Shown here: piece after piece, positions 4,153-54,256 of the stretch
How the letters are laid out: the number at the start of each line of letters is the position of its first letter
Numbering within the stretch: the stretch's first letter is position 1
From: a bacterium
GTDB taxonomy: Bacteria > Patescibacteriota > Minisyncoccia > Phycocordibacterales > JAKAEA01
Length of the DNA: 64,000 nt
Direction of reading: 5' to 3'
Assembly (NCBI GenBank): GCA_021818465.1
Contig: JAKAEA010000002.1
Coordinates: 31,882-95,881, forward strand
The notes under the pieces: generated by a model
What the model was told of the DNA's origin: nothing
The model's input: only the letters and a program-made list of their open reading frames with translations
Databases searched by the model: none
Position numbers and translations under genes: made by a program

Positions 4153-5169
4153 TTAGGTGAGAGAATGTTTTCTCTGCAACACGCTGCGCACCGCATCACG
4201 AACACCAGTCACACCCATACCGTAATGCTCGATGAGTTCGGCAGGAGTACCGGACTGGCCAAATTGATTATGAACACCGACAAATTCTATCGGTACCGGC
4301 TGGCCTTTGGCAGCCACGAGCTCGGCTACGGCGCTACCCATGCCGCCAGCGATTTGGTGTTCTTCAACAGTGACGAGCGCACCAGCAGATGCAGCAAGAT
4401 GCAATAAAGCGCGTTCATCAAGTGGTTTGATGGTAGAAAGATTGAGCACGGTGACACCAATTTTTTCTTTTTCCAGCTCGCGCGCTACTTGAAGAGCTTT
4501 GTGCACCAGTGCGCCAGTAGCAATGATACCGACGTCGGGCGTGCGCGTAACAGGCTGCCAAAAAATCTGGGCTTTCCCTATTTCAAACGACGTACTAGCG
4601 GTGGTGATAATTGGTGTCTGCTCACGTGCCAAACGCACGTAAACGGGCGTGTCGGTCTTTGCAACAGCGAGCGTGGCTTTCTTCGCTTCAATAGCATCAC
4701 AAGGCGAAATAACCACCATACGCGGCAGTACACGAGTGATAGCAATATCTTCAATCGCTTGATGTGTACCGCCATCAGGACCAACAGAGACACCCGCGTG
4801 TGAGCCGGCAATTTTAACCGGACGATTGTTGTAACAAATAGTGGTGCGGATTTGTTCCCAATTACGGCCGGGACTAAACATGGCATACGATGCAATAAAA
4901 GGAATTTTTCCCATAGCTGCCATACCACTTGCCGTAGCTGCAAGATTTTGCTCAGCAATACCTATCTCCACAAAGCGCTCAGGAAATTTTTCTTTAAACA
5001 AGTGCATTTGGGCCGACTCAGTAAGATCAGCACATAAGCCAACCACTCGCTCATCAGCCTCACCAGCGGCGAGTAAACCTTCACCAAAACCACGACGAAT
5101 GGGCACCTGCTCCACAGCATCGTCAAAAATTTTCTGATTGAGTTTTACATGCGAGGGTATCATAGACAA
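4153..5169 (-). CDS. Transketolase, C-terminal (pyrimidine-binding) subunit of a split enzyme
   Basis: EIGIAEQNLAATASGMAAMGKIPF and HAGVSVGPDGGTHQAIEDIA motifs. Sits directly downstream of the N-terminal subunit gene. Confidence 0.9.
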   Translation of the reverse strand: MSMIPSHVKLNQKIFDDAVEQVPIRRGFGEGLLAAGEADERVVGLCADLTESAQMHLFKEKFPERFVEIGIAEQNLAATASGMAAMGKIPFIASYAMFSPGRNWEQIRTTICYNNRPVKIAGSHAGVSVGPDGGTHQAIEDIAITRVLPRMVVISPCDAIEAKKATLAVAKTDTPVYVRLAREQTPIITTASTSFEIGKAQIFWQPVTRTPDVGIIATGALVHKALQVARELEKEKIGVTVLNLSTIKPLDERALLHLAASAGALVTVEEHQIAGGMGSAVAELVAAKGQPVPIEFVGVHNQFGQSGTPAELIEHYGMGVTGVRDAVRSVLQRKHSLT

Positions 5170-5174
5170 GTAGA

Positions 5175-6074
5175 TTATTGATGTTCACTTTGAATGCGAC
5201 CTTGCAGAGTGCGCAATTCAGTAAGTGCCATTTTTGCTTCGACAGCGTTTGGTGGTTTACCATGCCATTCAAATTTTCGTTCAAACTCAACAACGCCTTT
5301 GCCGGGAATAGTGTGGGCAATAATAACCGAGGGTTTATCAAAAATCGCTTTTGCTTGATCCACCGCCGCGACAATGTCCGTAAAGCTATGTCCATCAATT
5401 TCCAAGACGTGCCAATTAAATGCTTCCCACTTGGCGCGTAAATCTTCTAGTGGTAAAACATTTTCAGTATAGCCGTCAATTTGGATATTATTACGATCTA
5501 CAATGGCAATGAGATTGCCTAGTCGCTCACGACCCGCCACCAGCACCGCTTCCCAGTTATTGCCCTCATTTAGTTCGCCATCGCCCAAAAGACAGAAAAA
5601 GAAATGCGACACCACCGCACTCGCATCATCACCATTTTTTTTGCGGTCGATAGCGGCGTTCATCCGGTCAGCGATAGCCATACCAACCGCTTGCGAAAGA
5701 CCTGAACCGAGTGGTCCTGAGCTTGTTTCCAATGCTGGCAAAAAGTCGCGGTGCGGATGACCTTGTAAACGTGAACCAAACTTACGCAACGTGACCAATT
5801 CTGCAATTGGAAAATAACCGGCGTGGGCCATACTAGCATAGAGCACTGGGCAAATGTGACCGTTCGAAAGAATCACCCGATCGCGATCGGGCCAATGGGG
5901 CTGCTTCGGATCATGCTTTAAAATATAAAAATAAAGAGCAGTAAAAATATCTGCCATACCGAGTGGGCCAGCAGTGTGACCGGAACCCGCAGCCAAGAGC
6001 ATTGTAATGATAGATTCGCGAATAGCGTTGGCCTGCAACTCTAATTTTTTGATCGTCGTATCATCAAGGTGCAT
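5175..6074 (-). CDS. Transketolase, N-terminal (TPP-binding) subunit
   Basis: GSGHTAGPLG, GHPHRD and GDGELNEGNNWEA (TPP-binding) motifs. Split tktN/tktC arrangement. Confidence 0.9.
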   Translation of the reverse strand: MHLDDTTIKKLELQANAIRESIITMLLAAGSGHTAGPLGMADIFTALYFYILKHDPKQPHWPDRDRVILSNGHICPVLYASMAHAGYFPIAELVTLRKFGSRLQGHPHRDFLPALETSSGPLGSGLSQAVGMAIADRMNAAIDRKKNGDDASAVVSHFFFCLLGDGELNEGNNWEAVLVAGRERLGNLIAIVDRNNIQIDGYTENVLPLEDLRAKWEAFNWHVLEIDGHSFTDIVAAVDQAKAIFDKPSVIIAHTIPGKGVVEFERKFEWHGKPPNAVEAKMALTELRTLQGRIQSEHQ

Positions 6075-8743: not shown

Positions 8744-9334
8744 TTAATTTTGAGCAATCAGATTAGGCGGTATGGCAACGTTTGTCCCCACCGTCACGCC
8801 CGTAGCAGCAGCCGTTCCAGCATCTGCCTCAATAACATACATCGCCTGAGAAAAGCTAGTTGGTGCAAATACGGTCGGATAGGTACTTGTTGCCACATTC
8901 TCTTTCATATAGATAACCTTTCCTGTTTTATCAAGCCAAAAAATATCTAGTGGAAAATTCATACCTTTCATCCAAATACCCCAGTTACTCGCCGATGGAA
9001 ATACAAAGAGCATCACGCTATTTGCTGGTAAATTTTGCTGATATGAAAGACCGAGCTCTCGACTAGCTAAACTCGTGACAATGTCAGCAGAAAACACTTT
9101 TCCATTAAGCATCACCGTATTGGGTGCACTCGTAAGAGCTAGTGGAGTGTGCGAACTCTGCGTTGCTGTTGTCCCTGCCGATTGCGTATCTGACGATGCG
9201 GTAAATTGACTATTATCGACAGACGCCGCTTGTATTTTTTGAGCTAAACCATGAAATACCAGCACAAATGTTGGTACAAAAAATCCTAAAAAAACGAGAG
9301 CCGCCACACCACCGAAAAGAAGAGCTTTAATCAT
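8744..9334 (-). CDS. DUF192-family protein with N-terminal membrane anchor
   Basis: FPLDIFWLDKTGKVIYM matches the conserved DUF192 (COG1430) core; N-terminal TM helix. Confidence 0.6.
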   Translation of the reverse strand: MIKALLFGGVAALVFLGFFVPTFVLVFHGLAQKIQAASVDNSQFTASSDTQSAGTTATQSSHTPLALTSAPNTVMLNGKVFSADIVTSLASRELGLSYQQNLPANSVMLFVFPSASNWGIWMKGMNFPLDIFWLDKTGKVIYMKENVATSTYPTVFAPTSFSQAMYVIEADAGTAAATGVTVGTNVAIPPNLIAQN

Positions 9335-9370: not shown

Positions 9371-10756
9371 TTACTTTCTACGCCAAAAAAATGTCGCGAG
9401 ATGTAATTTCTCAGGCACGCGATTGAGATATGGAATATAGGGAAACAAAATGAGTAAAAGAACCAATGCGCCAAGAATTTCCGCGCCATCTCGATCGCCA
9501 TTAGGATCATTGGCGAGCACAGTATGATCTAACACGCCAAGCGGCGCCAGCCACCATGCTCCTGGTGGAACACTGCGCCCTTCCTCGTGAATCATTCCCC
9601 ACTGGTCGGTTGTTATGTGCAAATCACTCGCTTCATCATCCATCACACCAGTATCATCCAAGAAACGGAGTGAGTAGGTTGGCGCAATCGTGGGCGCTTC
9701 AGCATCCACTACCGCCTGATAGGTACCGCTGCTACTCATATGTACGAGCGATGTAATAACTGAAAGAAAGGGATTACCAATTGTAGACGTGGCAACTGAT
9801 GCGCCCTGGAAATACGCTTCGGCAGTTGTAATATCACTTTTTTGTTGAGCGGCCGACTCAGCAAAAAATACCGTCAGCTCATTGGGACCACCCGCAAGCG
9901 CCACGTACTGATCGTACGGCTTCACAATATACACCGTGCGCGTATTAAATGTGTAAGGATCAATAGAATCAAAATAGGTTGCTGTATCAGAGGTGTGATT
10001 AAATTCAGCAATAAGTGTTTGGGCAACACCGGCAGCATCGTCGGCAGCCACAGAAGCAATGGTAGCTGGTGTAATAAGCGGCGAAGGAAAAATAATTGCT
10101 AAAACAACAATGCACACCACAAGAACCCCACCTCGCACAAAAAGCTTTGTGTGATTTGCTGGCACAATCGGCACACGCACATCCTGCCGATACGGCGATG
10201 CAATGCCACGCGCTTTCACTAAAAGATAGTGCGTCAGCAGCAGGCCAAGCATAATGAGTGGAAGAATAACGATATGCAGACCGAATACTTGGAGATGGTT
10301 AAGTGTGTTTATATAATAGCCAAGATACGCACCATTCCAAAAATCAGCACCTTGTAAAGCGCGATATTGGGAAGAAAAATCACCACGCAAGTAATAACCA
10401 AATTCTGCTTCAAGTAATAAAAATACAAGCACGATAGCTCCCAGCGTCCACGTCAATCGACGTGGATGTTTAAAACCGCTCGTGGCAAATACCACCAACA
10501 GGTGCAACAAAATAATGAGAACGAACGCCTGCGCCGCCCACAAGTGAATGCTACGAAACAGAATTCCCCAAAAATTTATTGTCCACCACGCACTCCCCTC
10601 AAACACCATAACCAGACCAGTACCAAGCAAGATTGCAAAACACACCAATCCCAAAAATCCGAGTGAATAAAAAATACTATTGCCGTAGCGCGGCACATCA
10701 GTAATAAAAATTTTTTTTCTAATAATGCCGAGCACGCCTGGCGTATCGTTCTGCAT
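9371..10756 (-). CDS. Cytochrome b/b6 N-terminal-domain protein fused to a large extracytoplasmic domain and a terminal TM helix
   Basis: FRSIHLWAAQAFVLIILLHLLVVF has two His 14 residues apart (helix B heme ligands). PRRLTWTLGAIVLVFLLLEAEFGYYL parallels QcrB/PetB PRELNWIVGVLIF...GYLLPWD. HLQVFGLHIVILPLIMLGLLLTHYLLVKARGIASP parallels the helix-D His-containing segment. This is followed by about 250 non-hydrophobic residues and a final TM helix. Confidence 0.6.
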   Translation of the reverse strand: MQNDTPGVLGIIRKKIFITDVPRYGNSIFYSLGFLGLVCFAILLGTGLVMVFEGSAWWTINFWGILFRSIHLWAAQAFVLIILLHLLVVFATSGFKHPRRLTWTLGAIVLVFLLLEAEFGYYLRGDFSSQYRALQGADFWNGAYLGYYINTLNHLQVFGLHIVILPLIMLGLLLTHYLLVKARGIASPYRQDVRVPIVPANHTKLFVRGGVLVVCIVVLAIIFPSPLITPATIASVAADDAAGVAQTLIAEFNHTSDTATYFDSIDPYTFNTRTVYIVKPYDQYVALAGGPNELTVFFAESAAQQKSDITTAEAYFQGASVATSTIGNPFLSVITSLVHMSSSGTYQAVVDAEAPTIAPTYSLRFLDDTGVMDDEASDLHITTDQWGMIHEEGRSVPPGAWWLAPLGVLDHTVLANDPNGDRDGAEILGALVLLLILFPYIPYLNRVPEKLHLATFFWRRK

Positions 10757-10804: not shown

Positions 10805-13219
10805 TTACGCAATATCCAAGAGTTTTTGAATACCGCGTATTCTTTTTATTGCTTCAATAAGTATAAAACTTAGAATTGCCCCAATAATGATGAGCCAGAA
10901 AAAGAGCGGTGGCAATGGCGCGATAAAGAGACCCAGCCCGGCCACAATTGTTGAAAATGCCAATGAAAAGAGTAATGCAATAATGAGAATGCTTTTAGGT
11001 CGCACACTCCAACTAAACGGCCACGCTCGAATAGCAAGCAGTGTCGTAGCACCAAGGTAGATGAGTGACAAGTACACAATGGTTCTAATCGTATTAAACG
11101 GATACCGCATATGCCAAGCAATGACATATAAACTCATAGTAAAAATGTACGGAATAACGGCAATAAAGAACGCAGCAATGATGAGATTGCGAATATTCCA
11201 GCGAGCTGGATGATGAATAGGACTGGTATGATCAGTAGATATAGAAATGGTAACGAAGTCATTTGATAGAAGAATCAGAATAGCAATGAGCGGCGAGAGA
11301 ATGTATGAGTGTGTCAAAACAAAAATAACTGTCGCAATAAAAAGCGATTCCACTGATTTTATAACCTTATTTAAAGCCCACGTACGAATTCTAAAATACA
11401 CCCGGCGACCAGCCGTCACCACTCGCCGCACCCCCTCCAAACCAGGTGTCGTGAGAATGAAACTGGCTGCTTGCTTAGCAACCTCCGTTGCGCCCAACAC
11501 AGCAATGCCCACTTCCGCGCGGTGTAATGCCGGCGCATCATTCACACCATCACCAGTCATGCCAACTGAATGTCCAGCCTTCTGCAAAGCTTCAATAATA
11601 ATGAGCTTATCCTCGGGATATGCTTCAGCAAACACTACACCAGTAAGAGCGATGCTGGGGTTTTTATGTAATTCAGCAGGTGTAAACACGTCTCCCTCTA
11701 GTCCGAGACTGCGAGCAACCGCTTGCGCTGTTATTCGTCCATCGCCCGTAATCATTACCACGCGTACACCTAAACCGTTGAGTTCTTTAATTAATGCTGG
11801 AGCATCAGGACGAATCGGATCACTTAAACCAATAAGACCGACACACTCCTTAGGCGCACCAACCTCACCAGCAACAACAGCCAGAACTCGCAATCCATCA
11901 TCGCTCATGCGCGCGACATCCTGCAAAGCTTCGGGAGCGAAATGTACATCATTCGTCAGCAACAAATCCGGCAAACCCATTTGTATGTGTATATGCTTAT
12001 CTCCTTCAAGCACCTCAGCTTCTGTTCGCTTTGTTGATGGATCAAACGGTGTAAAACTCAAACGTTGCGGAGCGGTAAAACCTTCCGTTGCTGCTTTTTG
12101 TAAAATTGCCTGGTCAATAGAATTTTCATCAGCCGCATCGCTCGCTGCCGAGGCAAGCATGAACACTCTTTTTTCATCATTTGTACCATAATATTTTGTT
12201 GCCGAAACCGCTAGTTTATTTTGGGTCAACGTACCAGTTTTATCACTACAGAGCACATCAATAACCGCTGCTTCTTGCACAGCCCCCAATCGACGTACTA
12301 ACACGCGCCGATCATCACCATCACTACCACCATCTCCCGCATTAAGTTGGAGCGCGCCATAGGTTTGAGCAACCGCAAACATTGTCGGAAACGCAATAGG
12401 TACCGACATAAGCATAAGCACAATGACGTAATTAATAATTTGTAGTGCGGGCGCATGCACCAATACGCCAAAGATAATAACCCCGAGTGCTACCAACATG
12501 TTCAAAATAAAAAAGTATTTGATGATAGCAAATACCACCTTTTCCATATGCGTTGGTGGATGAGCCACTTGGAGAAGCTCTGTTGTTTTGCCGTAGCGCG
12601 TCGCTTTACCAATAGTGGTTACTGCCACCGTTGCTTCACCGCGGCGCACAATGCTACCTGAATACACCGTATCGTGTACGGTCACATCCTGTGGCAATGA
12701 TTCACCAGTCAAACTAGAAAGATCAACACTCACATTGCCATCTAAAATTTTTGCATCAGCAGGAACAACGTCACCAGCCCGAATACGCACCACATCCCCT
12801 GGTAAAAGTTCTCGCGCTGCCACCACCTTCCAATTACCACTACGATTAACACGCGCTTCAACTTGAATTGCTTTGCGTAATGTCGCCAACGCCTTATCAG
12901 CCGAGCGGCGCTGTAAAATATTGATAGCGCTGTTCACAAAAAGCAAAACAACGATAATGAGTGCCTCAACCTGATTACCTGAAAAATAGGTAATGACCAC
13001 CATGAGCTCCAAAAGCCACGGTAATGGACCCCAAAAATTTTTAAAGTAGAGCAGAAGTAAACTCTCATGATACTCCGGTAGCTCGTTCCATCCATAGCGT
13101 GTTCGTAACGCTGTAATATCCGAATCTTGTAAACCTGTATGCGTATTTTTAGGAGTACCGTTTGTCGTTAGCATCATTTCTAACCATACCAAATTTTTCA
13201 AGACAGCGTCAATAAACAA
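10805..13219 (-). CDS. P-type ATPase, type III-like (plasma-membrane H+/Mg2+ type)
   Basis: CSDKTGTLT phosphorylation site, TGES, MTGDGVNDAPAL hinge and 10 predicted TM segments. The N-terminus (WNELPEYHESLLLLYFKNFWGPLPWLLE) resembles P3A proton pumps. Confidence 0.88.
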   Translation of the reverse strand: MFIDAVLKNLVWLEMMLTTNGTPKNTHTGLQDSDITALRTRYGWNELPEYHESLLLLYFKNFWGPLPWLLELMVVITYFSGNQVEALIIVVLLFVNSAINILQRRSADKALATLRKAIQVEARVNRSGNWKVVAARELLPGDVVRIRAGDVVPADAKILDGNVSVDLSSLTGESLPQDVTVHDTVYSGSIVRRGEATVAVTTIGKATRYGKTTELLQVAHPPTHMEKVVFAIIKYFFILNMLVALGVIIFGVLVHAPALQIINYVIVLMLMSVPIAFPTMFAVAQTYGALQLNAGDGGSDGDDRRVLVRRLGAVQEAAVIDVLCSDKTGTLTQNKLAVSATKYYGTNDEKRVFMLASAASDAADENSIDQAILQKAATEGFTAPQRLSFTPFDPSTKRTEAEVLEGDKHIHIQMGLPDLLLTNDVHFAPEALQDVARMSDDGLRVLAVVAGEVGAPKECVGLIGLSDPIRPDAPALIKELNGLGVRVVMITGDGRITAQAVARSLGLEGDVFTPAELHKNPSIALTGVVFAEAYPEDKLIIIEALQKAGHSVGMTGDGVNDAPALHRAEVGIAVLGATEVAKQAASFILTTPGLEGVRRVVTAGRRVYFRIRTWALNKVIKSVESLFIATVIFVLTHSYILSPLIAILILLSNDFVTISISTDHTSPIHHPARWNIRNLIIAAFFIAVIPYIFTMSLYVIAWHMRYPFNTIRTIVYLSLIYLGATTLLAIRAWPFSWSVRPKSILIIALLFSLAFSTIVAGLGLFIAPLPPLFFWLIIIGAILSFILIEAIKRIRGIQKLLDIA

Positions 13220-13256: not shown

Positions 13257-14399
13257 TTACTGATACTGAATAAAAATAGGTCGCGGCCGCAACGAAAGAA
13301 TCTCTCGTGGCGTCATAAGGTGACTACCGTTGGCCACATCGTTTTTATAAAATATTTTTATACCGGCAAATTGAACTGGCTCGGGATAGATAATTTCGTT
13401 ATAAACCTTAGTCTTTTGTGCAGGTGTACCGAAACCATCCATATCCATAACTATCTCGGTTTGCGGTAATGGCGTAATATCCTGATAATTGGTCACCATA
13501 GACTTAGTAAAACGGTGCACCACAAGAAATTTTGGTGGCAAATTGTATTGTGTAACAAGGTGCGCAAGATATCGTGCCGCAAAATTTATATCCGAAGCAT
13601 CCAAAGAACCGATGGCGGTACCGGGGCGTTTAGGCGGCTGGAGAGCAAATTCTGGATCTAAAGCCAATTCAACATTCGGCAATTTTAGATATGGTTCAAG
13701 CAACGGTACCTCTTGCTCTACCGTACTCCAACCAACTTGTACATCTAAAATGACTAAACCGTGCACTTGGTTTGCTAACTGTATTGCTTCTTCAATACTG
13801 CTCGATGCCATGCGCAAGCGATACATACCATTTGGCCCTGGACTTCCCTGTGCTGAAACGGCTATGTAATCCAGAGCTGGTATCACCGGCGTAGCTGGGT
13901 CAGCAGCTTTCCATTGGGCCACCTGATTCATAAGGCGCGTAAGCATTTCCTGTGGCGGATATTGTCCCAAAATACCCATTGCTGGAGAAAGAAAATTACC
14001 ATAATACGCCACCACTCGATTAAATGGCAAAATAGCACCATACGCAGGATACGCTGCATGGGCAGGCCAAAGATATGTGGGCTGCCGCACAATAGTTGAG
14101 GAAGCCCGGGCAGCACTCGTGCTTGCTACAAAAGAAGGTGCGACTGGATTGTTCGCCAACTCTTCCATCAATTTGTTATACAAAGCTATATTCAGCTGTG
14201 GTTGAGGTGGTGGTGGGTCTATTTTGGGTGGATCTACTTTTATAGGGGGCACGTGGTAATACACCACTGGATTAAAAAAAGCCGCATGGTCGGCAACAAC
14301 TACAAACAAGACAACTACAATAAAGAGCACGGGCATCAGAAGTCCCCACACAATCGGATACTTTTCTTTTGATTTTTTACTCTTTTTAATAATAGACAA
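13257..14399 (-). CDS. Membrane-anchored hypothetical protein with Pro-rich linker and a possible hydrolase-like extracytoplasmic domain
   Basis: N-terminal basic stretch plus TM helix, PPIKVDPPKIDPPPPQPQ linker, then a 280-aa globular region with no motif I can name confidently. Confidence 0.45.
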   Translation of the reverse strand: MSIIKKSKKSKEKYPIVWGLLMPVLFIVVVLFVVVADHAAFFNPVVYYHVPPIKVDPPKIDPPPPQPQLNIALYNKLMEELANNPVAPSFVASTSAARASSTIVRQPTYLWPAHAAYPAYGAILPFNRVVAYYGNFLSPAMGILGQYPPQEMLTRLMNQVAQWKAADPATPVIPALDYIAVSAQGSPGPNGMYRLRMASSSIEEAIQLANQVHGLVILDVQVGWSTVEQEVPLLEPYLKLPNVELALDPEFALQPPKRPGTAIGSLDASDINFAARYLAHLVTQYNLPPKFLVVHRFTKSMVTNYQDITPLPQTEIVMDMDGFGTPAQKTKVYNEIIYPEPVQFAGIKIFYKNDVANGSHLMTPREILSLRPRPIFIQYQ

Positions 14400-14599: not shown

Positions 14600-15553
14600 A
14601 TGAGTATTATGAATATAACGAACATACAACGAACTCTACTCGGGGTGTTTCTTGGTGGCATCATGATTCCAGCATTAACTTTTGCGGCAGGTGGAAGTGG
14701 TGGCGGTGGCGCTAGTGGTGGCGGGACAGGAGGAGTTGGTACGAGTGTAAACGTAAACACGGGTATCCAGCAACAAGATCAAACGCGTGATCGTATTCAA
14801 GATCCAACCACGCATACAGGCGATGAGCCACTACAGACGCGTGATCAGGATCGTGATCGTCTCTATCTTTATCAAAGTACCACCACAGTACCAATGGGAG
14901 CTGGACAAATGAATCAAAATCAAGGTGTTGTACCGAGTCTTGGTAGTCAATATCAATATGGACAACCGATGCCAACCGCAACCACGGGTCAAGGCACCCA
15001 AACCCAATATCAATATCGACTCCAAATAGACCCTGAGCATCTACAGATACAAGCAGGTAATGCTGCACAATTGCAGCAAATGGTGCAAACACGCGAACAA
15101 GAACTCACACAAGAAGCATCGACAACTCCCACACAAAACCGTACAGCGGTACAAAACGCAAATCGTACACGCCTTGCAGTCTATGCTGTGATGGCAGCTC
15201 AAAATATGCTTCCGGCGACTATCGGTCAACAGATGACGCAACTCGCCAATCAAATAAATGCCTCAATCCAAACTTCAACCACTCTTGAAGCGCAGATGGA
15301 GAATAGAGGTTTCTTGGAGCGACTCTTATTTGGTGGTGATACCAATTCCGCACAAACACTTGCACAAATATCCAACGAAAACCAAGCGAGAGTCCAATAC
15401 ATGATGCAGTTACTTTCACAAGCGAGTTCAACACCAGACGTGCAAGCACAACTCCAGACACAACTCCAGACCATACTACAAGAGCAGCAACAGCTTCAAA
15501 ACCTTGCTCAACAAGAACAAAACCGATGGGGCATCTTTAGTTGGCGTTTGTGA
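14600..15553 (+). CDS. Secreted Gln/Thr-rich low-complexity protein
   Basis: Signal/TM segment followed by a Gly-rich stretch (GGSGGGGASGGGTGG) and a long Q/T-rich region with repeated QxQxQ and LQxQ patterns. Terminator-like hairpin plus T-run downstream. Confidence 0.5.
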   Translation: MSIMNITNIQRTLLGVFLGGIMIPALTFAAGGSGGGGASGGGTGGVGTSVNVNTGIQQQDQTRDRIQDPTTHTGDEPLQTRDQDRDRLYLYQSTTTVPMGAGQMNQNQGVVPSLGSQYQYGQPMPTATTGQGTQTQYQYRLQIDPEHLQIQAGNAAQLQQMVQTREQELTQEASTTPTQNRTAVQNANRTRLAVYAVMAAQNMLPATIGQQMTQLANQINASIQTSTTLEAQMENRGFLERLLFGGDTNSAQTLAQISNENQARVQYMMQLLSQASSTPDVQAQLQTQLQTILQEQQQLQNLAQQEQNRWGIFSWRL

Positions 15554-36059: not shown

Positions 36060-38558
36060 CTACGCTACCTTTCCTTGTTGGATAGCTTGAATGTATTGCT
36101 CTACTTGTGATTTTGCTTGTGGATCTAATGTCTCTACTTTCTTAAGTGTTGCAATAGCATCAACACTATCTTTGACTAATAAGTATGCCCCGGCCAAAGA
36201 AACATAATTATTAACATTTGTAGGATCAATTGCCACCCGTTCTTGCCACATTTTCAGTACCGCCTTGTAATCCCCAATAAAATAGTAGGCGTGCAAAATT
36301 GCATCATTCGTCGCGAGCGTCGTTGTCGACACCGCCGGCGCTTGGAGAATCTGGTTAGCGAGTGTTTCATTTTTGTTGTAAATGGCGGCGGCAGCATACA
36401 GTAATTGTGCGGCTTGATCTTTTGTATCTAATTCATAAGCAGTTCGTAAGGTTTTCAGTGCGTTCACAAAATCCTCCTCGCCAATATACACTGAAGCAAT
36501 TTCAAAGAGAATGGTTTGTTTATCAGGAGATAGTTGCTGTGCTTTTTGGAGAAGCGGTAACGCCACCTGATACTGACCAGCGCTGGCAAGTACCGAACCA
36601 GGTAATAGATAGTAGCGTGCATCATACGGCGTGCGAGAAATTTGAATATTCGCCTGCTGCTCAACAAATGCGATGAGTTTATTTTCTTCAGTGACAAGAC
36701 CAGGGTCAGGTTGACCAGTGCCACTTTGCTGAGCAGAGTTAGCGACTTGCGTGGAAAGTTGATCAAGCGCGCCAAAAAGCTGTTCACGAATTTCCGGATC
36801 ACCAAAGGTACGCCAGGAGAGCGCCTGTTGATAGGCGGCAATGGTTTCCTCAACGGTCGGCTGGGTAGATGGATTAATAGCAGCAATCAAATCAACGTTA
36901 GCCATTATGGGCTTCACATTAACAAAGTACAGCAGCAGCACGAGCGCCACAGCGGTAATCGGTACAATAACCCGATTAGGTTGATAGCTAGCAGATGCTG
37001 TTTCAAGCACTTTTGTATCAGCGTCTACAGACATTGTCCGACGAGTATAGACATACGCCGCGATACTAACATAGAAAAGATAGCTTGCTATATTATCAAA
37101 CACAAAAAAGTTATTGATAAAGTAGCCAGCAAGCATGCCAGTTAATACTGATTTTTCCGCAACTGAAAAAGGATTATCACCCGCAATGCCGCCAAGACGT
37201 TTAAGATATCTTAAACTACGCCACCCCCGAGCGGTGTCAGTATCTTCAAGCAATGTGTAGTCGCGTTTCCCCACCCAGATATACCAGATGATCGACGCAA
37301 AGAGGGCGATATACGAAAGGAAGCCGAGCGCACCACCAGTGACGAGCCAATCAAAAATAATATTGTGAGCGCGATCAAACCACTGCTCGTCGGCATACAA
37401 CCGAGGATCGTAAAATTTATTAAAGACGTAGTTAAAACTTTCTTGACCCCAACCAAGTATCGGCCGCTCCAAGAAACCTTGCCAGGCCATACCCCACAAA
37501 ATGAGACGCGACTGAGTTGTAGTATTGTGAATTGAAATATCAGCAAAGCGTTTCAACGTGCCGTTATCCTTCATAAGGCTGGTATTTTTCAGACCAAAGA
37601 AAAGTATCAGTATAGCGACCATACCAATCACAATCCCCCAGCCTGTGCGACGCAACCAGCGGCGATCACGTTCAAAAATTCCTATGAGCAGTGCTACCAA
37701 ACCTAAGCCACCCAAAAAACCGAGAATGGCGCCGCGTGTTTCTGTTTCAAAAACTACCCAGAAGTCTAACAGGAACAGTAGAGCGTACAACCAATAGCCG
37801 CGCTCAAAGAGAGCAGAAAAAAGTAAGAGTAAGTCGCCAATAATAAGACCCGCGACGGTCCAAAACACTGCTGCCGGCAACATCGTCGAATTCACCGCTG
37901 TCGCTGTTAAATTAGGGGCAATAAAAGCAATGACACCGACGTTGAGACCAAGCGCAACAAACCAATGATTGCGAATGTTGAAATTCCCTTTTCGCCGCAC
38001 CAAGAAAAACAAAACCAAGAAAGCGCTAAAGAGCATGTAGATAGCGAGGTAGGCCGAGTTTCCCAGAGCCGCGTCAATACGTGTATTACCTTGATCAATA
38101 CGTAGCAAGCCGAATGTTTGCAAAAACGAAAAAAGAATCATCGCACCACTCGCGCCAATCCATGTTTGCCAGAGGCGCTCCCACATATCTTTCGTGAGAA
38201 TAGTGCCGGCAACAATACCATAACCAAGTAGATGTGCGAATGTTACCCACCCCTCCATGCGCTCAAAATTTGACCAGAAACTTTTATAGGGGTACTGACT
38301 ATGGAGATCGGCGATAAACATAATTGCCACCACCAACACTGCCGCCCAGCCTAACCAAGAATTTTTCGGACGGAATTTTGTGTTAGTCACCGCCAAAATA
38401 AGCCATGAACCGAAAATGATTTCGGTAATGATTCGGAAGTAAAAACCCTTACCGGTAATAAATGGAAAAAACAGATTATTAGAAACGAGGAGTGGCACGA
38501 AGGCAAGCGCAAACAAGCCGACGATGCACACCCATTGTAAAATACGGTTGAGCTTCAT
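36060..38558 (-). CDS. O-antigen ligase/polymerase-like (Wzy_C-type) polytopic membrane protein fused to C-terminal TPR repeats
   Basis: About 12 TM helices in the N-terminal 470 aa with a large periplasmic loop, then about 350 aa of TPR-like helical repeats. Confidence 0.65.
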   Translation of the reverse strand: MKLNRILQWVCIVGLFALAFVPLLVSNNLFFPFITGKGFYFRIITEIIFGSWLILAVTNTKFRPKNSWLGWAAVLVVAIMFIADLHSQYPYKSFWSNFERMEGWVTFAHLLGYGIVAGTILTKDMWERLWQTWIGASGAMILFSFLQTFGLLRIDQGNTRIDAALGNSAYLAIYMLFSAFLVLFFLVRRKGNFNIRNHWFVALGLNVGVIAFIAPNLTATAVNSTMLPAAVFWTVAGLIIGDLLLLFSALFERGYWLYALLFLLDFWVVFETETRGAILGFLGGLGLVALLIGIFERDRRWLRRTGWGIVIGMVAILILFFGLKNTSLMKDNGTLKRFADISIHNTTTQSRLILWGMAWQGFLERPILGWGQESFNYVFNKFYDPRLYADEQWFDRAHNIIFDWLVTGGALGFLSYIALFASIIWYIWVGKRDYTLLEDTDTARGWRSLRYLKRLGGIAGDNPFSVAEKSVLTGMLAGYFINNFFVFDNIASYLFYVSIAAYVYTRRTMSVDADTKVLETASASYQPNRVIVPITAVALVLLLYFVNVKPIMANVDLIAAINPSTQPTVEETIAAYQQALSWRTFGDPEIREQLFGALDQLSTQVANSAQQSGTGQPDPGLVTEENKLIAFVEQQANIQISRTPYDARYYLLPGSVLASAGQYQVALPLLQKAQQLSPDKQTILFEIASVYIGEEDFVNALKTLRTAYELDTKDQAAQLLYAAAAIYNKNETLANQILQAPAVSTTTLATNDAILHAYYFIGDYKAVLKMWQERVAIDPTNVNNYVSLAGAYLLVKDSVDAIATLKKVETLDPQAKSQVEQYIQAIQQGKVA

Positions 38559-47932: not shown

Positions 47933-50143
47933 TTACAACTTCCTAAGCTCGTTAGAGATAGTGTCTATGAGCCCAGTAATGTTCGCTTGTGTACGCACGG
48001 TGTTTTGCAGCTCTTCAGTAAGGGTGCGTATATCTTTGTATTCGTGGAGTGCTGATATTTTTAAGGCCAAATCCTCAGCGTCTCGTTCTCTAAACATAAG
48101 GATTTGGCTATATGGTCCTAGCACTTCTTTGAATGCGGGATTGGAAGTTAACACGGGTGTTCCGGCGGCCATAGATTCGAGCACCGCTTTATCTTGACCA
48201 CCGCTTGGCGCGGCATTAATACTAATGTCAGCGTGCCAATACTGCTCGGCAATTTTTGTCGACGCAATAGCACCGACCCAACGAATTTCTTTGGTAAGAT
48301 TAAGTGCGCTAATCTGTTGTTCTAATTTTTTCTTATATATTGTATCGGCGGGATACGTTGCCTCACCGACAAGATCAAGCGCCACCATATTACCTCGTTT
48401 TTTCAAAAGCGCGACGGCATCAATAATCGTATCCAGATTTTTAATGGGCGTGACACGACCCACACTCACGAGATGTAGTGAATGGTGGTGGCGATGGTGG
48501 TGCTGCGCCACGCTCGTGTGCGGTCGAATAAAAGCAGCAACGTCTACTGCCTGTCCTAGATAGTGAACTTTTTTACTTGCAATCCGAAAACTTTGTGGCG
48601 TCGCGGTAAAAACGCTATTGGCTATACGCGTCGCTAACCGCAAGGTTATACTAACGTGTCGATGCACATACCACAACGCAATTTTTTTACGCCACTGTTT
48701 CCACAACAATCCTCCGAGCACAACGTATATGGGATTCATGTGTACCAACACCGCATCATATTTTTCCCGTTCGTGACGAATATAATAAAAAAATCTGCGA
48801 ATATATTTCCACCGCGAACGACCGTTTTCTTTGCCAAGCGAACGTATAGTGACATTAGCCGGCAGAGCATGTCGTCCTTCTTCTAAACAAATTACCGTCA
48901 CTGTCTCAAAATGCTCCGCGAATGCTTCAATCCACCGATGAAAAAAACCAAGGACAGGATTATCGAGATTAACACTCTGGGTCACAATAAGTAATCGTTT
49001 TATTTTTTCGACGTGTAGTGTTTGTTCAAACAATGTCTTATATTCTTCCAGATACCGCTCGTTGGAAATTAAACCTTGGGTAACAGCAGCACCCGCAGCA
49101 ACACCGAGCCTCTGACACGTCTCGGGTGCAGCCAGTAACTCGCTGAGCGTTTTTTCAAAATCATCTTCGTTCGCCACTCGACACACGCGCGCACTCACGT
49201 TATCACGTAACACATCTCCAGCAATACCAACGTCAGACGTCACAATAGTCTTACCTGCCGCAGCTGCTTCGAGAAGCGTCAAACCGTAGCCTTCATAGAG
49301 CGACGTAGAAAGAAAAATGTTCGCTGCCGCATAATACGGAGCAACATCATTCGTCCACGGCTCAAAAACTACCGCCTCACCGAGACCGAGCTTCGCGCAT
49401 AAACGTTGTAATCGTTTTTTTTCTGGACCATCGCCAACAATAACCAAACCAACCGTTGGAAAATCAGCAAGAATTTTTTTAAAAACACGTATAGCCAGAG
49501 CGATATTTTTTTCTGGCGCTAAACGAGATACCATCAAAATGACATCGGAAAATTGCGGATACTTGTCGGTACTGGTGGCAGCTATCGCTTGGAATCGCGT
49601 CGCATCGGTGTAAATCGGGAGCACCGATATTTTTGTTCGATCGATGTCGGGAAAATGCTCGACGAGTGAACGAGCGATGCGTTGAGAAACAACGCGAACG
49701 GTATCAGCTCGAGGTACCACCCGCCAGGCAATAAACGATCGCAAAAAATTGAGCACAGAGTGGCGCCAAAAGTATGGGCTCAAAAAATCAGTGTGCACCT
49801 GCACCTGCAATCGCATGCCGAATCGTTTTTTTAAAAATATCCCCACAAGACCCGTTTCAAACGGATCTTGTACCGAAACAATTGTGTCAGCTGCTGTATA
49901 TTTTTTCTGACGAATGCATGTCGCAGCGACACGCCGAGCATCCTGTATATAGAAAAATTTTGAACGAGAATTTGTCGGATAGACCCACACATTATGTGCA
50001 AGCTGTTGTGGCGTATACCCACGTACGGTAAAAACAATAATGTGCATTTCTCCCACACGATTGCCATATGCGACCATTCGCTGGCGCACAGCGCTGCCCT
50101 CTTCAAAAAGTTTGCGATCGGTACCAATACTAATGACGTTCAT
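47933..50143 (-). CDS. Tandem (fused) double GT4 glycosyltransferase
   Basis: Two complete Glycos_transf_1 units: SLYEGYGLTLLEAAAAGKTIVTSDVG (N-half) and PSGGQDKAVLESMAAGTPVLTSNPAF (C-half); 736 aa. Confidence 0.75.
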   Translation of the reverse strand: MNVISIGTDRKLFEEGSAVRQRMVAYGNRVGEMHIIVFTVRGYTPQQLAHNVWVYPTNSRSKFFYIQDARRVAATCIRQKKYTAADTIVSVQDPFETGLVGIFLKKRFGMRLQVQVHTDFLSPYFWRHSVLNFLRSFIAWRVVPRADTVRVVSQRIARSLVEHFPDIDRTKISVLPIYTDATRFQAIAATSTDKYPQFSDVILMVSRLAPEKNIALAIRVFKKILADFPTVGLVIVGDGPEKKRLQRLCAKLGLGEAVVFEPWTNDVAPYYAAANIFLSTSLYEGYGLTLLEAAAAGKTIVTSDVGIAGDVLRDNVSARVCRVANEDDFEKTLSELLAAPETCQRLGVAAGAAVTQGLISNERYLEEYKTLFEQTLHVEKIKRLLIVTQSVNLDNPVLGFFHRWIEAFAEHFETVTVICLEEGRHALPANVTIRSLGKENGRSRWKYIRRFFYYIRHEREKYDAVLVHMNPIYVVLGGLLWKQWRKKIALWYVHRHVSITLRLATRIANSVFTATPQSFRIASKKVHYLGQAVDVAAFIRPHTSVAQHHHRHHHSLHLVSVGRVTPIKNLDTIIDAVALLKKRGNMVALDLVGEATYPADTIYKKKLEQQISALNLTKEIRWVGAIASTKIAEQYWHADISINAAPSGGQDKAVLESMAAGTPVLTSNPAFKEVLGPYSQILMFRERDAEDLALKISALHEYKDIRTLTEELQNTVRTQANITGLIDTISNELRKL

Positions 50144-51345: not shown

Positions 51346-52479
51346 TCAACAAAAAAATGTCGTATCCATCCTCTCGGCAAGCAGGTCCCAATCATACGCC
51401 ACAACCAGCTTCTTGCCGTTTGCAATCAGTGTCGCCTGTAGCGTAGCGTCATGCATTATTTTTTGTACTGCCGTAGCAATACTGTGAGGATTATGCGGCT
51501 GACAAAAAACACCAGTTTCTCCATCATGCAAAAAATCAGGAATGCCCCCAACCGGCGTACCCACAATCGGCACACCCGCAGCCATTGCTTCAATAAAAAC
51601 ATTACCCATCCCCTCTGAACGTGAGGGGCGAATAAAAATATCGCTGGCCGAAAGCCACACGGGCAGCTCACCATGAGGCACCTGCCCAGCAAAAAAAACT
51701 CTAGTAGATAGACCGAGAGCGACCGTCTGTTCGCGTAATTTTTTTTCTAACACACCCGTACCAAGTATATAGAGGCCAACATGTTCAGGTAGTATAGCGA
51801 GAGCGCGTAGAATGTCTTCTGTGCCATTCTTTTCTACTAATCGGGAAACCGTGATGAGACGCACGGTCACGTGCGGCAACTGTTGAAGAATTTTTTGTTG
51901 TTCGATGTGCGCGATAGTGGCACCGAATTTTTTTACATCAACACCATTAGGAATAATTTCTATTGGTGCTCGTGCCCCCATATCGTGCGCAAAATGTCGT
52001 AGATATGAAGAAATTGCCTGAATTCGATGGGCCTGGCGAAAAATTTGCGTGAAGAGTGGCCACACAATCATCGCTCGATGTTTGGGTCGCTCGAGCGGAT
52101 CTCCTTCCTGAAGCGACAAAAAATACGGCACCTGAGGATACAACATTTTAAAAAAAATAGCAGCAAAACCACTGAAACTAGCCATAATACTCCACGTTGC
52201 CGTAAAAGACTTTTTTGTATGCAGTCGGCGCGCCAGATACAGTGCGGCAAATGGATATAGTATTTTATAGAAATACCCCCGCCCACCAAGTCGGTGTACA
52301 CGCACCGCCCCCACCACTTCGTCTCTCGACTCACGACCAGTAAGATTAATGGTGATCATCTCAAATTCATACCCACGTCGCGCCAGACGATCGGTAATTT
52401 CTTTAACAGCAATTTCCGCCCCGCCCACCCACGGCAAGTACGCAGTAGAAAAAATAAGAATTCGTTTATTCGCCACCAT
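51346..52479 (-). CDS. Glycosyltransferase family 4
   Basis: LPWVGGAEIAVKEITDRLARRGYE; C-terminal RPSRSEGMGNVFIEAMAAGVPIVGTPVGG. Internal Met at about 52479 is the likely start; the track ORF runs to 52551. Confidence 0.8.
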   Translation of the reverse strand: MVANKRILIFSTAYLPWVGGAEIAVKEITDRLARRGYEFEMITINLTGRESRDEVVGAVRVHRLGGRGYFYKILYPFAALYLARRLHTKKSFTATWSIMASFSGFAAIFFKMLYPQVPYFLSLQEGDPLERPKHRAMIVWPLFTQIFRQAHRIQAISSYLRHFAHDMGARAPIEIIPNGVDVKKFGATIAHIEQQKILQQLPHVTVRLITVSRLVEKNGTEDILRALAILPEHVGLYILGTGVLEKKLREQTVALGLSTRVFFAGQVPHGELPVWLSASDIFIRPSRSEGMGNVFIEAMAAGVPIVGTPVGGIPDFLHDGETGVFCQPHNPHSIATAVQKIMHDATLQATLIANGKKLVVAYDWDLLAERMDTTFFC

Positions 52480-54256
52480 TGAGAATATTGCGCAACACTG
52501 ATTCCGGCACTTCTTGTGTCTCGTGTACTGGGCGTGTATTTTTTTCGGCAACTGTAGCAGGTGTGTCAGATTTTTTTTCTTCTTTTTTAGGCGCCGCGAC
52601 AGATGTGGGGACGGCTCGTGACAGTGCTGATGCCGTTGACTGTTTTTCTTTTACTGCTGCTTCAATTGCGTTTCGTAACGCATTTTTATTTTCTGTCGAT
52701 AGCGTTTTTGTAGTAGCATTCGACGTGAAAGGATGCGGCGTCGGGGAACTAGGGCGAGGCTGTGACGGTGGTACCACAGGTGGTTGATGCGGTTTGACCT
52801 GCTGCTGTGGCCGCGCACCATCTGCCGCCGGTCGCTCAAATTTTCTATCACGTGAGCCACGGTTTTCCTGAGAAGAACCAATACCATTTTGCTGCTGACG
52901 GGAACTTGGTGGCGACACTATTGGCGCATGCCAATCGCGAATTATTTTCTCAACATCTGCGCGCGGCCGAGCAAAAAATTCTCGCGAAAAGGTAATCACA
53001 TCTTCCTTGAAAGAGACCGTGGGCGCATCAATGGGTGGCAAGGTGCGTGCCGAAAATGGCTGCGATGTGACACCATCAATCATCAACTTTAAATAAATCT
53101 GTACGAATCCCAAATTCACCAAATCCTCCTTAGTAAAAGTGGGGAAAAATTCTTTCTCCAGTACCTCGGCATCGTAGGCACCAACACGAAACACAATCAT
53201 GGTGCCCACGTTGCCAAACACAGCCGCTCGCACCTCTTCACTCATTTGCTCAATATACTGATGGGCAATCGTGAGATTGAGTTTGTATTTGCGGGCTTCT
53301 GAAAGAATATCAGCGAATGACTCATTGGCGAACGATTGAAATTCATCCACATACAAATAGAAATTCGGCAATGCTTTTTGCGAAGCGCCAGACACGTCAG
53401 CACGCGACATTGCCGCCAAATAAATTTTGGTAATAATCATTGAGCCAAGCAAGTTGGCATTCATTTCCCCCACTCGCCCCTTAGATAGGTTAATAATAAT
53501 AATTTTTCGCTCATCCATCATTGCGCGTAAATCAAATGTGGACTTTGATTGACCGATAATGTTGCGTACCAGCGGATTAGACACAAATTGACCGACTTTA
53601 TTCTGAATTGCCGCAGTTGCATCGGTAGCAAGTCGGTCGTTATATTTAGCAAATTCATCTGTCCAAAATGCTTTTACCGAAGGATCGGTAACCTTTTCCA
53701 CCACTTTATTTCTATAAGCCTTGTCAGCAAACATTCTGTTAACGCCCAAAATAGTCGCGCCAGGATATTCCAAAAGAGCCAGGAGTGCATTGTTGAGAAT
53801 GTATTCCATGCGCGCACTCCATGCATCCACCCAAATTTTCTTAAACGCACTCATAAGACCACTCACCACCAAGTGGCGCTTATCAAAACCAACATCTTCC
53901 ATAACGTTAAAAGCGATCGGATATTCCAGATCAAATGGCGCGAAATAGAGCACATCCTTCATCCGCTCCGGCGGAATGTAATCAAGCAGAAGTTCAGCTG
54001 TTTTACCGTGCGGATCAATAAAAGCCAATCCTTCACCAGCAGCAATATCTTGAATGGCCATATTTTCTAATACCGTCGACTTACCCATACCGGTTTTGCC
54101 GATGATGTAGGTATGACGTGAACGATCATCGCTCTTAATGCCAAAAGGGATACGCTGACCACGGCTATCTGTTTCAGCAAAATAGGTTATCCGATTACCA
54201 TTAATAACTGGCGGCGTCTTTTTATTTTCATGGTTACGAGGAGGCATACGATACAA
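52466..54256 (-). CDS. TraG/TraD/VirD4-family or HerA/FtsK-like P-loop ATPase (type-IV-secretion-coupling-protein-like), soluble, with Pro/Gln-rich disordered C-terminal tail
   Basis: Walker A YIIGKTGMGKST; downstream hydrophobic-DE Walker B (LYVDEF); about 430-aa ATPase core followed by about 160 aa of low-complexity P/Q/S tail. No TM helices and no other T4SS genes nearby. Confidence 0.55.
   Translation of the reverse strand: MYRMPPRNHENKKTPPVINGNRITYFAETDSRGQRIPFGIKSDDRSRHTYIIGKTGMGKSTVLENMAIQDIAAGEGLAFIDPHGKTAELLLDYIPPERMKDVLYFAPFDLEYPIAFNVMEDVGFDKRHLVVSGLMSAFKKIWVDAWSARMEYILNNALLALLEYPGATILGVNRMFADKAYRNKVVEKVTDPSVKAFWTDEFAKYNDRLATDATAAIQNKVGQFVSNPLVRNIIGQSKSTFDLRAMMDERKIIIINLSKGRVGEMNANLLGSMIITKIYLAAMSRADVSGASQKALPNFYLYVDEFQSFANESFADILSEARKYKLNLTIAHQYIEQMSEEVRAAVFGNVGTMIVFRVGAYDAEVLEKEFFPTFTKEDLVNLGFVQIYLKLMIDGVTSQPFSARTLPPIDAPTVSFKEDVITFSREFFARPRADVEKIIRDWHAPIVSPPSSRQQQNGIGSSQENRGSRDRKFERPAADGARPQQQVKPHQPPVVPPSQPRPSSPTPHPFTSNATTKTLSTENKNALRNAIEAAVKEKQSTASALSRAVPTSVAAPKKEEKKSDTPATVAEKNTRPVHETQEVPESVLRNILNGGE

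Follow-up and report, generated by a model that had tools for sequence, protein, structure and literature searches.

The window analyzed here is a 64,000-nucleotide stretch of the patescibacterial contig JAKAEA010000002.1 (assembly GCA_021818465.1, positions 31,882 to 95,881 of the forward strand), and the element under study is a minus-strand gene in it that encodes a cytochrome b6-like membrane protein of 461 amino acids (aa). A database entry, P0001, has the identical protein, and the window was also placed on contig DAIEME010000002.1 (103 kb) of the MAG GCA_027341405.1. An earlier note, made from the sequence alone, had described this gene as an orphan cytochrome b6/QcrB-like four-helix module fused to an extracytoplasmic domain of about 250 aa. 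The gene and the features of its N-terminal half are the following:

9371 to 10756, minus strand: complete cytochrome b6-like gene, 461 aa, ATG start (open reading frame (ORF) coding for six transmembrane (TM) helices and an ecto-domain).
10187 to 10756, minus strand: putative haem-binding b6-type core, residues 1-190, helices A-D (PF13631, PF00033, b6 chains, hhalign and Foldseek).
10544 to 10546, minus strand: His71, equivalent to b6 His86, ligand of the outer (p-side) haem (alignment, codon checked).
10502 to 10504, minus strand: His85, equivalent to b6 His100, ligand of the inner (n-side) haem (alignment, codon checked).
10274 to 10276, minus strand: His161, equivalent to b6 His187, outer haem ligand (alignment, codon checked).
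10229 to 10231, minus strand: His176, equivalent to b6 His202, inner haem ligand (alignment, codon checked).
10331 to 10411, minus strand: clade-specific cd-region motif EAEFGYYLRGDFSSQY..ADFWNG, in place of the GY(S/V)LPWGQ of the quinol-oxidation site (alignment).

Based on a Pfam scan, PF13631 matched residues 77-230 (1.2e-15, 58.3 bits against a gathering score of 27) and PF00033 matched residues 27-126 (8.9e-11, 42.4 bits against 27.2). The closest sequences with solved structures were cyanobacterial and chloroplast cytochrome b6 chains (2e-15, residues 21-188), and hhalign against Rhodococcus QcrB gave 6e-18 with residues 30-196 aligned. An AlphaFold2 (AF2) model of the whole protein, built on an alignment of 45 sequences from the Candidate Phyla Radiation (CPR), reached a pLDDT of 79.9 and a pTM of 0.75, and its leading Foldseek matches in the PDB were actinobacterial QcrB and bc1 cytochrome b (E 3e-7, probability 1.0, TMq about 0.40). 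The likeness of the N-terminal part to cytochrome b/b6 proposed in the earlier note is thus confirmed above threshold, and the motifs that it quoted, SIHLWAAQAFVLIILLH with its two histidines 14 residues apart, PRRLTW and GYYL, are all present. The top NCBIfam models were ExtP, cytochrome b6 and actinobacterial QcrB, every one of them scoring far under its equivalog cutoff. ExtP (NF040969), the b-type cytochrome of a selenite/tellurite reduction operon, was the best of them (2.3e-17) and is likewise a short b6-like protein outside bc complexes; however, its 63.5 bits against an equivalog cutoff of 290 make the window protein no equivalog, and the 205-position model includes no counterpart of the C-terminal half.

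Helices A to D of the model span residues 28-53, 62-91, 100-122 and 154-183. In cytochrome b6f the p-side haem is held by the bis-histidine pair H86/H187 and the n-side haem by the pair H100/H202. Their equivalents H71, H85, H161 and H176 are invariant in the 45 CPR sequences and are also kept in the actinobacterial fused and Firmicute split forms described below, as in canonical b6. The first two are those of SIHLWAAQAFVLIILLH, and helix D, for which the earlier note had mentioned a histidine, in fact carries two, H161 and H176, 15 apart. This is the b6-type spacing, with 13 residues between the ligands of helix B and 14 between those of helix D, and the four-helix core and ligand positions are the same as in cytochrome b6 (PetB) and Firmicute QcrB. 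The motifs VPxxxNxFYxLG, (K)PRxLTW and GI(A/S)xP are also common to the window protein and cytochrome b6. The two differ in that the cysteine of haem cn in b6 (Cys35, CxGG) is not present in the alignment, where Ser31 in IFYSLGF takes its place; the A-B loop is 11 residues shorter; the cd loop is rewritten; and the core is fused to two further helices, E and F, and a 195-aa ecto-domain, with no Rieske, subunit IV or cytochrome f/c partner. Within the rewritten cd region E116, E118, R124, D126, R132 and D138 are invariant among the CPR sequences; the Firmicute split forms and the actinobacterial fused forms have the motif too, whereas b6 lacks it. The b6-type scaffold with all of its ligands is conserved throughout the superfamily. 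As judged from ligand alignment and fold match, residues 1-190 are a genuine cytochrome b/b6 core, predicted to bind two haems.

The C-terminal half shows these features:

10085 to 10153, minus strand: fifth TM helix at the helix E position, residues 202-224 (202-222 in AF2), with His202 at its start on the cytoplasmic side.
9500 to 10084, minus strand: extracytoplasmic acidic all-helical cap, residues 225-419, with the motifs SDTATY, DPY, RFLxDTG and QWGM.
9536 to 9565, minus strand: PGAWWLAPLG, residues 398-407, just before helix F at the PEWY position (alignment).
9437 to 9502, minus strand: NGDRDGA acidic loop and sixth TM helix at the helix F position, residues 419-440 (420-440 in AF2; AF2 and alignment).
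9374 to 9436, minus strand: basic cytoplasmic tail IPYLNRVPEK...FFWRRK, with the superfamily-wide signature P.IP.LN.IP...LIW (alignment and charge).

The earlier note was right about a large non-hydrophobic domain that ends in one more TM helix, yet it missed the fifth helix (202-224) that precedes this domain, whose length is about 195 aa and not about 250. According to charge counts, both tails (N and C) and the loops B-C and D-E are basic, in agreement with the positive-inside rule, and therefore the cap domain should face outward, above the p-side haem. Its 195 residues include 24 acidic and 5 basic ones and no Cys. In the AF2 model an all-helical stretch (residues 233-378) is followed by a low-confidence loop (384-395) and by a short amphipathic helix (401-411) that bears PGAWWLAPLG. 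In this last segment G399, A400, W401, W402, L403, P405 and G407 are invariant in the CPR sequences, W402 being so superfamily-wide; D421, R422 and D423 of the acidic loop are invariant as well, as is His202, which is missing from the split forms. The protein thus has six TM helices with an outward acidic cap, a rewritten p-side surface and a b6-like n-side face. SDTATY was considered as a site of flavinylation by ApbE and rejected: its terminal Thr is variable (N in the relative P0005, Q or N in split forms) and at -2 and -3 it departs from the S/T-G-A-S/T motif.

The C-terminal half, or C-module (residues 196-461), gave no match to a Pfam family, a PDB sequence or a solved fold. PF00032 was not matched in the Pfam scan by the window protein or by any of 19 C-module sequences, and a C-module profile run against the PDB retrieved no cytochrome b or PetD chain. 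Homology of this module to the C-terminal domain of cytochrome b or to subunit IV was rejected on these empty searches, together with the hhalign alignment to Rhodococcus QcrB, which stops at residue 196. Accordingly, helices E and F resemble their namesakes in cytochrome b in position and topology only, and the correspondence of PGAWW to PEWY is kept as a positional resemblance, homology not being demonstrated by hhalign.

A word-indexed search returned more than 600 relatives, of which the best 120 were all full length (430-497 aa) and 52-81% identical; those with names are entered as 'cytochrome b N-terminal domain-containing protein' from Patescibacteria, Saccharimonadales and Levyibacteriota. 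The gene is carried by at least 118 GTDB species representatives (relatives 50-81% identical), with titles that include Saccharimonadales/Saccharibacteria, Parcubacteria, Adlerbacteria, Daviesbacteria, Doudnabacteria, Berkelbacteria and similar groups. These homologues agree with the CPR-type genome suspected in the earlier note, whose term 'orphan' suits the missing bc partners but not the protein family, which is large. Mean column identity in the 45-sequence alignment was 61% over the whole length, non-hydrophobic domain included, and further invariant elements were SDTATY, DPY, GAWWLxPxG and DRD. Because such whole-length conservation is high for CPR proteins, the function is apparently under strong selection.

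An exhaustive HMMER search with the C-module as query found only 62 clusters at 50% identity, which fall into four groups: 1) the CPR family and two distant full-length relatives, 2) a 639-aa fused form of actinobacterial composition, 3) a form of 982 aa to which a TM helix and a beta-propeller are added and 4) many C-module-only proteins of about 320-340 aa, built of a TM helix, the ecto-domain, PGxWW, a second TM helix and an LIWR tail. The actinobacterial fused form had more than 3,000 matches, some of them named Streptosporangiaceae, and is a stand-alone gene in the three contexts inspected. The split form was found in Alicyclobacillus mengziensis, A. hesperidum, A. tolerans and Alicyclobacillus sp. 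ALC3, and also in Thermaerobacter, Ca. Hydrogenisulfobacillus filiaventi and Solirubrobacteraceae. In the split units of three Firmicute genomes a b6-like gene of 204-213 aa (PF13631) ends within 4 nucleotides (nt) of the C-module start, and in two of the three the coding regions overlap, so that the halves make up a single functional unit. Since the split b6-like proteins bear the diagnostic cd motif (FTGYLSRGDFFSQW..KDAFNG) as the window protein does, whereas canonical b6 does not, the window protein is a two-gene system in fused form. The two modules always travel together, and their split and fused states parallel petB/petD and long cytochrome b. What the earlier note called a fusion is indeed two joined halves; it is no one-off, being the joined form of a pair that is split in Firmicutes.

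Some further details of these relatives are worth recording. The three Firmicute units contain a conserved third gene, directly after the C-module gene, for a small protein of 69-77 aa with two TM helices (L093 9035-9244, L094 8969-9187, L095 8984-9217), and no equivalent was seen in the CPR loci; in A. mengziensis the three genes together occupy 4810100-4811954 of CP071182.1. One actinobacterial fused homologue (L089, 8001-9932, with flanks) lies amid nitroreductase, F420H2-quinone-reductase-like, universal stress protein and cyclic nucleotide-binding genes, a setting reminiscent of hypoxia/dormancy regulons. The 982-aa metagenome protein P0123 joins the CPR-type cytochrome b-like protein and an extra TM helix to a beta-propeller of about 500 aa. 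It may hint at an extracytoplasmic dehydrogenase partner; as a Rosetta stone it was rejected, its similarity to pyrroloquinoline quinone (PQQ) repeats being faint (E about 1e-4 to 0.1) and the fusion amounting to one cluster.

We looked for bc partners of the gene. Motif scans and gene annotation of the 64 kb turned up no true Rieske box, no haem motif of the c type and no signature of an oxidase, as the earlier note had stated; a CxxCH at about 9358 is intergenic and a CxCH at about 11076 lies in a spurious ORF, and neither is a cytochrome c. No Rieske or cytochrome c gene occurs among the annotated neighbour clusters of 80 CPR loci, three actinobacterial contexts and three Firmicute contexts. 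In the alignment the quinol-oxidation (Qo) motifs P(E/D/V)WY and GY.LPWGQ are not present and PGAWW and GYYLRGDFSSQ stand instead. The window protein therefore fails each testable hallmark of a bc subunit, namely Rieske association, PEWY, PWGQ, PF00032 and the cn cysteine, and the earlier view that its architecture is not that of a bc1/b6f subunit holds. Like actinobacterial QcrB and the long cytochrome b of bc1, it is a single polypeptide that runs past helix D into more TM helices; unlike them, it has two further helices and not four, PGAWW for PEWY/PDWY, and a large helical insertion between helix E and PGAWW.

The two adjacent genes, correctly named in the earlier note, are:

10805 to 13219, minus strand: type IIIA (plasma-membrane H+-efflux) P-type ATPase, upstream, 48 nt from the cytochrome b-like start (TIGR01647, 8e-169, 563 bits).
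8744 to 9334, minus strand: DUF192 membrane-anchored protein, 36 nt after the cytochrome b-like stop (PF02643, 3e-23).

Neither of the two short gaps that separate these genes from the cytochrome b-like gene holds a terminator-like site, and a promoter-like site was located at 13253-13226, just upstream of the ATPase. Co-transcription of the ATPase and cytochrome b-like genes is plausible. ATPases of the TIGR01647 type are a eukaryote-style subtype, uncommon in bacteria.

In order to find recurrent partners, all ORFs within ±10 kb of the gene were clustered at the 80 CPR genome loci, and the loci were de-replicated by grouping the cytochromes at 70% identity into 46 clusters. No universal partner was present at these 80 loci. 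The most enriched neighbours were those of an NQR/RNF-like flavin module, recognized by Pfam as an RnfD-like membrane domain fused to an FNR-type FAD/NAD domain, ApbE and FMN_bind. This module is found in 19 of the 80 loci, where a naive expectation for a single-copy gene would be about 1-2 (P below 1e-10), and the association is retained in 12 of the 46 clusters. The order CYTB>FMN_bind>ApbE>RnfD-FNR, directly downstream and on the same strand, was observed in L064, L066, L072 and L086, and CYTB>FMN_bind in L052; the tight operon belongs to one lineage, with members 84-87% identical. P-type ATPases were the second enriched neighbour (12 of 80 loci, 11 of 46 clusters). When ten of them were typed, TIGR01647 was the clear best model in seven, four of which scored above the curated cutoff; in L067 it was a weak leading match, and two were Ca-type. 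Type IIIA enzymes also adjoin the cytochrome b-like gene in L009, L028, L042, L050, L054 and L061, and the gap between the two genes is 6 nt in L009, 8 nt in L042 and 48 nt in the window. P-type ATPase genes lie near two Firmicute units too (Kdp in L093, fragments in L095). The adjacency to which the earlier note drew attention thus extends across loci for the H+-ATPase but not for DUF192, which was discarded as a partner as it adjoins the gene only in the closest relatives and is not among the recurrent neighbours of the 80 loci. Regulators of the Crp/Fnr type recur in nine loci.

Taken together, the window protein is probably a self-contained, Rieske-independent transmembrane di-haem electron conduit, with its cap as the place where a partner or substrate outside the cytoplasm docks; the stand-alone electron shuttle put forward in the earlier note is likewise the best-supported reading and a fairly likely one. 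Helices A-D would hold two b-haems as in cytochrome b6, the outer one between H71 and H161 and the inner one between H85 and H176, and helices E and F would anchor the acidic cap above the outer haem. The surface that in canonical cytochrome b serves quinol oxidation and Rieske docking is rewritten, with RGDFSSQ for PWGQ and PGAWW for PEWY, and the cap would be where a redox partner outside the cytoplasm docks or a substrate binds. The b6-like inner face (VPxYxNxxFYSLGF, PRRLTW, H202/R208) could be a second redox site, for a quinone-like or cytoplasmic substrate. Electrons would be conducted, in one direction or the other, between the site under the cap and the one on the inner face. For certain CPR lineages a possible outer partner is the NQR/RNF-like NAD(P)H dehydrogenase, through its flavinylated FMN_bind subunit. 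NQR and RNF have a 'return path' into the cell that the NQR/RNF-like module lacks; with such a partner the cytochrome b-like protein would provide this path and close a redox loop from flavin to haem. A role tied to membrane energisation or pH homeostasis is suggested by the type IIIA H+-ATPase that recurs beside the gene. Two bis-His b-haems stacked across the membrane are also found in the FdnI/NarI, MsrQ, PepSY-like and DUF4405 conduits, an analogy and not a homology since folds and families are different; DUF4405 (PF14358) matched below threshold (20.6 bits against 26.7, residues 34-87 only).

Several observations weigh against the conduit reading. CPR bacteria generally lack the biosynthesis of haem and quinone, and both cofactors would have to be scavenged. 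According to the alignment, neither Cys nor His is conserved in the ecto-domain, and no cofactor site can be recognised there. The Rieske negative holds for the window and the loci examined, and a gene elsewhere in the genome is possible. As regards the flavin partnership, tblastn found no ApbE, FMN_bind or RnfD-FNR gene in the 64 kb, and there were no flavin neighbours at the six non-CPR contexts (three actinobacterial, three Firmicute). A reciprocal test was done on 80 metagenome loci found with a CPR-type RnfD-FNR profile, 35 of them at least 8 kb long: ApbE was present in 66 of the 80 and FMN_bind in 58, but the cytochrome b-like gene in only one (one of the 35 longer loci).

These last results bear most directly on the possible, if unlikely, alternative that the protein is the dedicated acceptor of the NQR/RNF-like flavin system, with electrons running from NAD(P)H through RnfD-FNR and FMN_bind to the two haems in a redox loop that builds membrane potential. 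The operon order and the enrichment given above argue for it, as do the occurrence of both systems in Actinobacteria and CPR (PMC8238504) and the acidic cap above the outer haem. Publications on the NQR/RNF-like systems of these bacteria identify no acceptor (PMC8238504, PMC11334425), and Huang et al. 2024 modelled the module as a two-subunit complex (PMC11334425); neither this paper nor Meheust et al. 2021 (PMC8238504) mentions cytochrome b, and their text supplements list no PF13631 or PF00033. The systems resemble the present case in their presence in CPR and Actinobacteria and, in a CPR subset, in sharing an operon with the cytochrome b-like gene; they differ in that the published version has two subunits and no cytochrome, and the association is non-reciprocal and absent from the window. 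Indeed, the reciprocal association is at chance level, 61 of the 80 loci have no flavin genes within 10 kb, and the tight operon is limited to a single lineage. Since the reciprocal test failed and the window and the non-CPR relatives are flavin-free, the flavin partnership is not the general mechanism; an obligate partnership is rejected by the reciprocal scan, and the association is at most lineage-specific or optional.

An improbable alternative is that the protein is an electron exporter, for instance a ferric or other extracytoplasmic reductase (compare MsrQ, Dcytb and FRE), which would draw on a donor in the cytoplasm and pass the electrons to a cation or partner on the cap, with the potential made by the H+-ATPase assisting. 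A strongly acidic ecto-domain with the Asp-rich NGDRDGA loop would suit this function, and so would the recurrent type IIIA neighbour, the occurrence of the split form in Firmicutes that are acidophilic and iron-active (Alicyclobacillus and the Sulfobacillus relative Hydrogenisulfobacillus) and the frequent ties of flavinylation-associated systems to iron reduction (PMC8238504). On the other hand, the cap has no conserved metal ligands (His/Cys), iron transporters are not among the recurrent neighbours of the 80 loci, no cytoplasmic reductase domain or partner was identified, and the weak DUF4405/MsrQ-like match is the one that fell below threshold.

That the protein is the cytochrome b subunit of a divergent conventional Rieske/cytochrome b complex, with its partners encoded elsewhere in the genome, is highly improbable. 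In its favour, the fold and ligands are those of cytochrome b, helices E/F and P-x-x-W-W stand at the helix E/F and PEWY positions, Dibrova et al. 2017 placed the Saccharibacteria and Patescibacteria proteins in bc 'subfamily G', with no functional comment (PMC5600118), and the Joint Genome Institute (JGI) auto-annotates some members as 'ubiquinol-cytochrome c reductase cytochrome b subunit', but bc genes are normally co-operonic and no Rieske or cytochrome c gene lies near this one at any of the loci surveyed, the Qo cd region and PEWY are replaced, the 195-aa domain fills the surface where the Rieske head docks, neither hhalign nor PF00032 reaches the C-domain, and Patescibacteria are reported to be ancestrally without electron transport chains (PMC7507113).

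The di-haem conduit reading matters in view of the wide description of CPR/Patescibacteria as devoid of electron transport chains and of haem or quinone biosynthesis. The cytochrome b-like protein is among the better conserved CPR membrane proteins, with the identities and species breadth given above, and this strong conservation argues that it is in use, that these epibionts obtain haem and that a transmembrane redox reaction of some kind is important to them. Its C-terminal module is unannotated, with no Pfam family or structural relative. The literature searched contained no characterisation of the family and no link of cytochrome b to NQR/RNF-like clusters; for the C-module, its split/fused relationship and the ATPase and flavin-module neighbourhoods we found no prior description, and databases give a generic name only. 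The NQR/RNF-like flavin systems are missing an acceptor, and the protein is a candidate for it. A eukaryote-type plasma-membrane H+-ATPase repeatedly accompanies the protein, which points to an unexplored form of membrane energisation in fermentative ultra-small bacteria. A bolder proposal, which we regard as decidedly doubtful, is that the family represents an unrecognised class of Rieske-less haem-b transmembrane redox device in monoderms (Firmicutes, Actinobacteria and CPR), either completing a minimal energy-conserving loop in 'non-respiring' CPR, from NAD(P)H through flavins outside the membrane and the two haems to an inner acceptor, or working with the H+-ATPase; if so, CPR would make or use membrane potential with scavenged haem and perhaps scavenged quinone. 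As the two-part system exists in cultivable Alicyclobacillus, the function is experimentally tractable.

Several Rhodococcus plasmids carry a lone 'cytochrome bc complex cytochrome b subunit' (qcrB) gene (hits H5-H11), and in the one context examined, R. aetherivorans plasmid pRaL13f (L097, 3698-5344), qcrB has no adjoining qcrA or qcrC. In the window, glycolysis and pentose-phosphate genes continue after DUF192, all on the same strand. Elsewhere the window has genes for GroEL, RNase J, pyruvate kinase, Mur enzymes, an oligopeptide-binding protein and a two-component system, together with a large glycosyltransferase/polysaccharide cluster. The transketolase (about 4153-6074, minus strand) is split into two genes, whose products are the N-terminal portion (299 aa) and the C-terminal portion (336 aa), within a compact cluster of GAPDH, RpiB, Rpe, transketolase, PfkB and FBA. 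A DNA_alkylation repair gene (PF08713, 16667-17383, minus strand) consists of two consecutive ORFs of 100 and 116 aa and may be a frameshift or a pseudogene. Two proteins had no Pfam or NCBIfam match, one of 380 aa with a Pro-rich N-terminus and a TM helix (13257-14399, minus strand) and one of 317 aa (14600-15553, plus strand). A surface-polysaccharide locus at about 38000-60000 comprises at least seven family 4 (GT4) glycosyltransferases, including a 736-aa double-GT protein (47933-50143), as well as a Wzy_C/TPR protein (36060-38558), a flippase, methyltransferases and a polysaccharide deacetylase. Adjoining the glycosyltransferase cluster, a protein of 593-596 aa (52466-54256, minus strand) with weak TrwB/T4SS-DNA_transf/DUF87 matches could be a coupling-protein-like ATPase.

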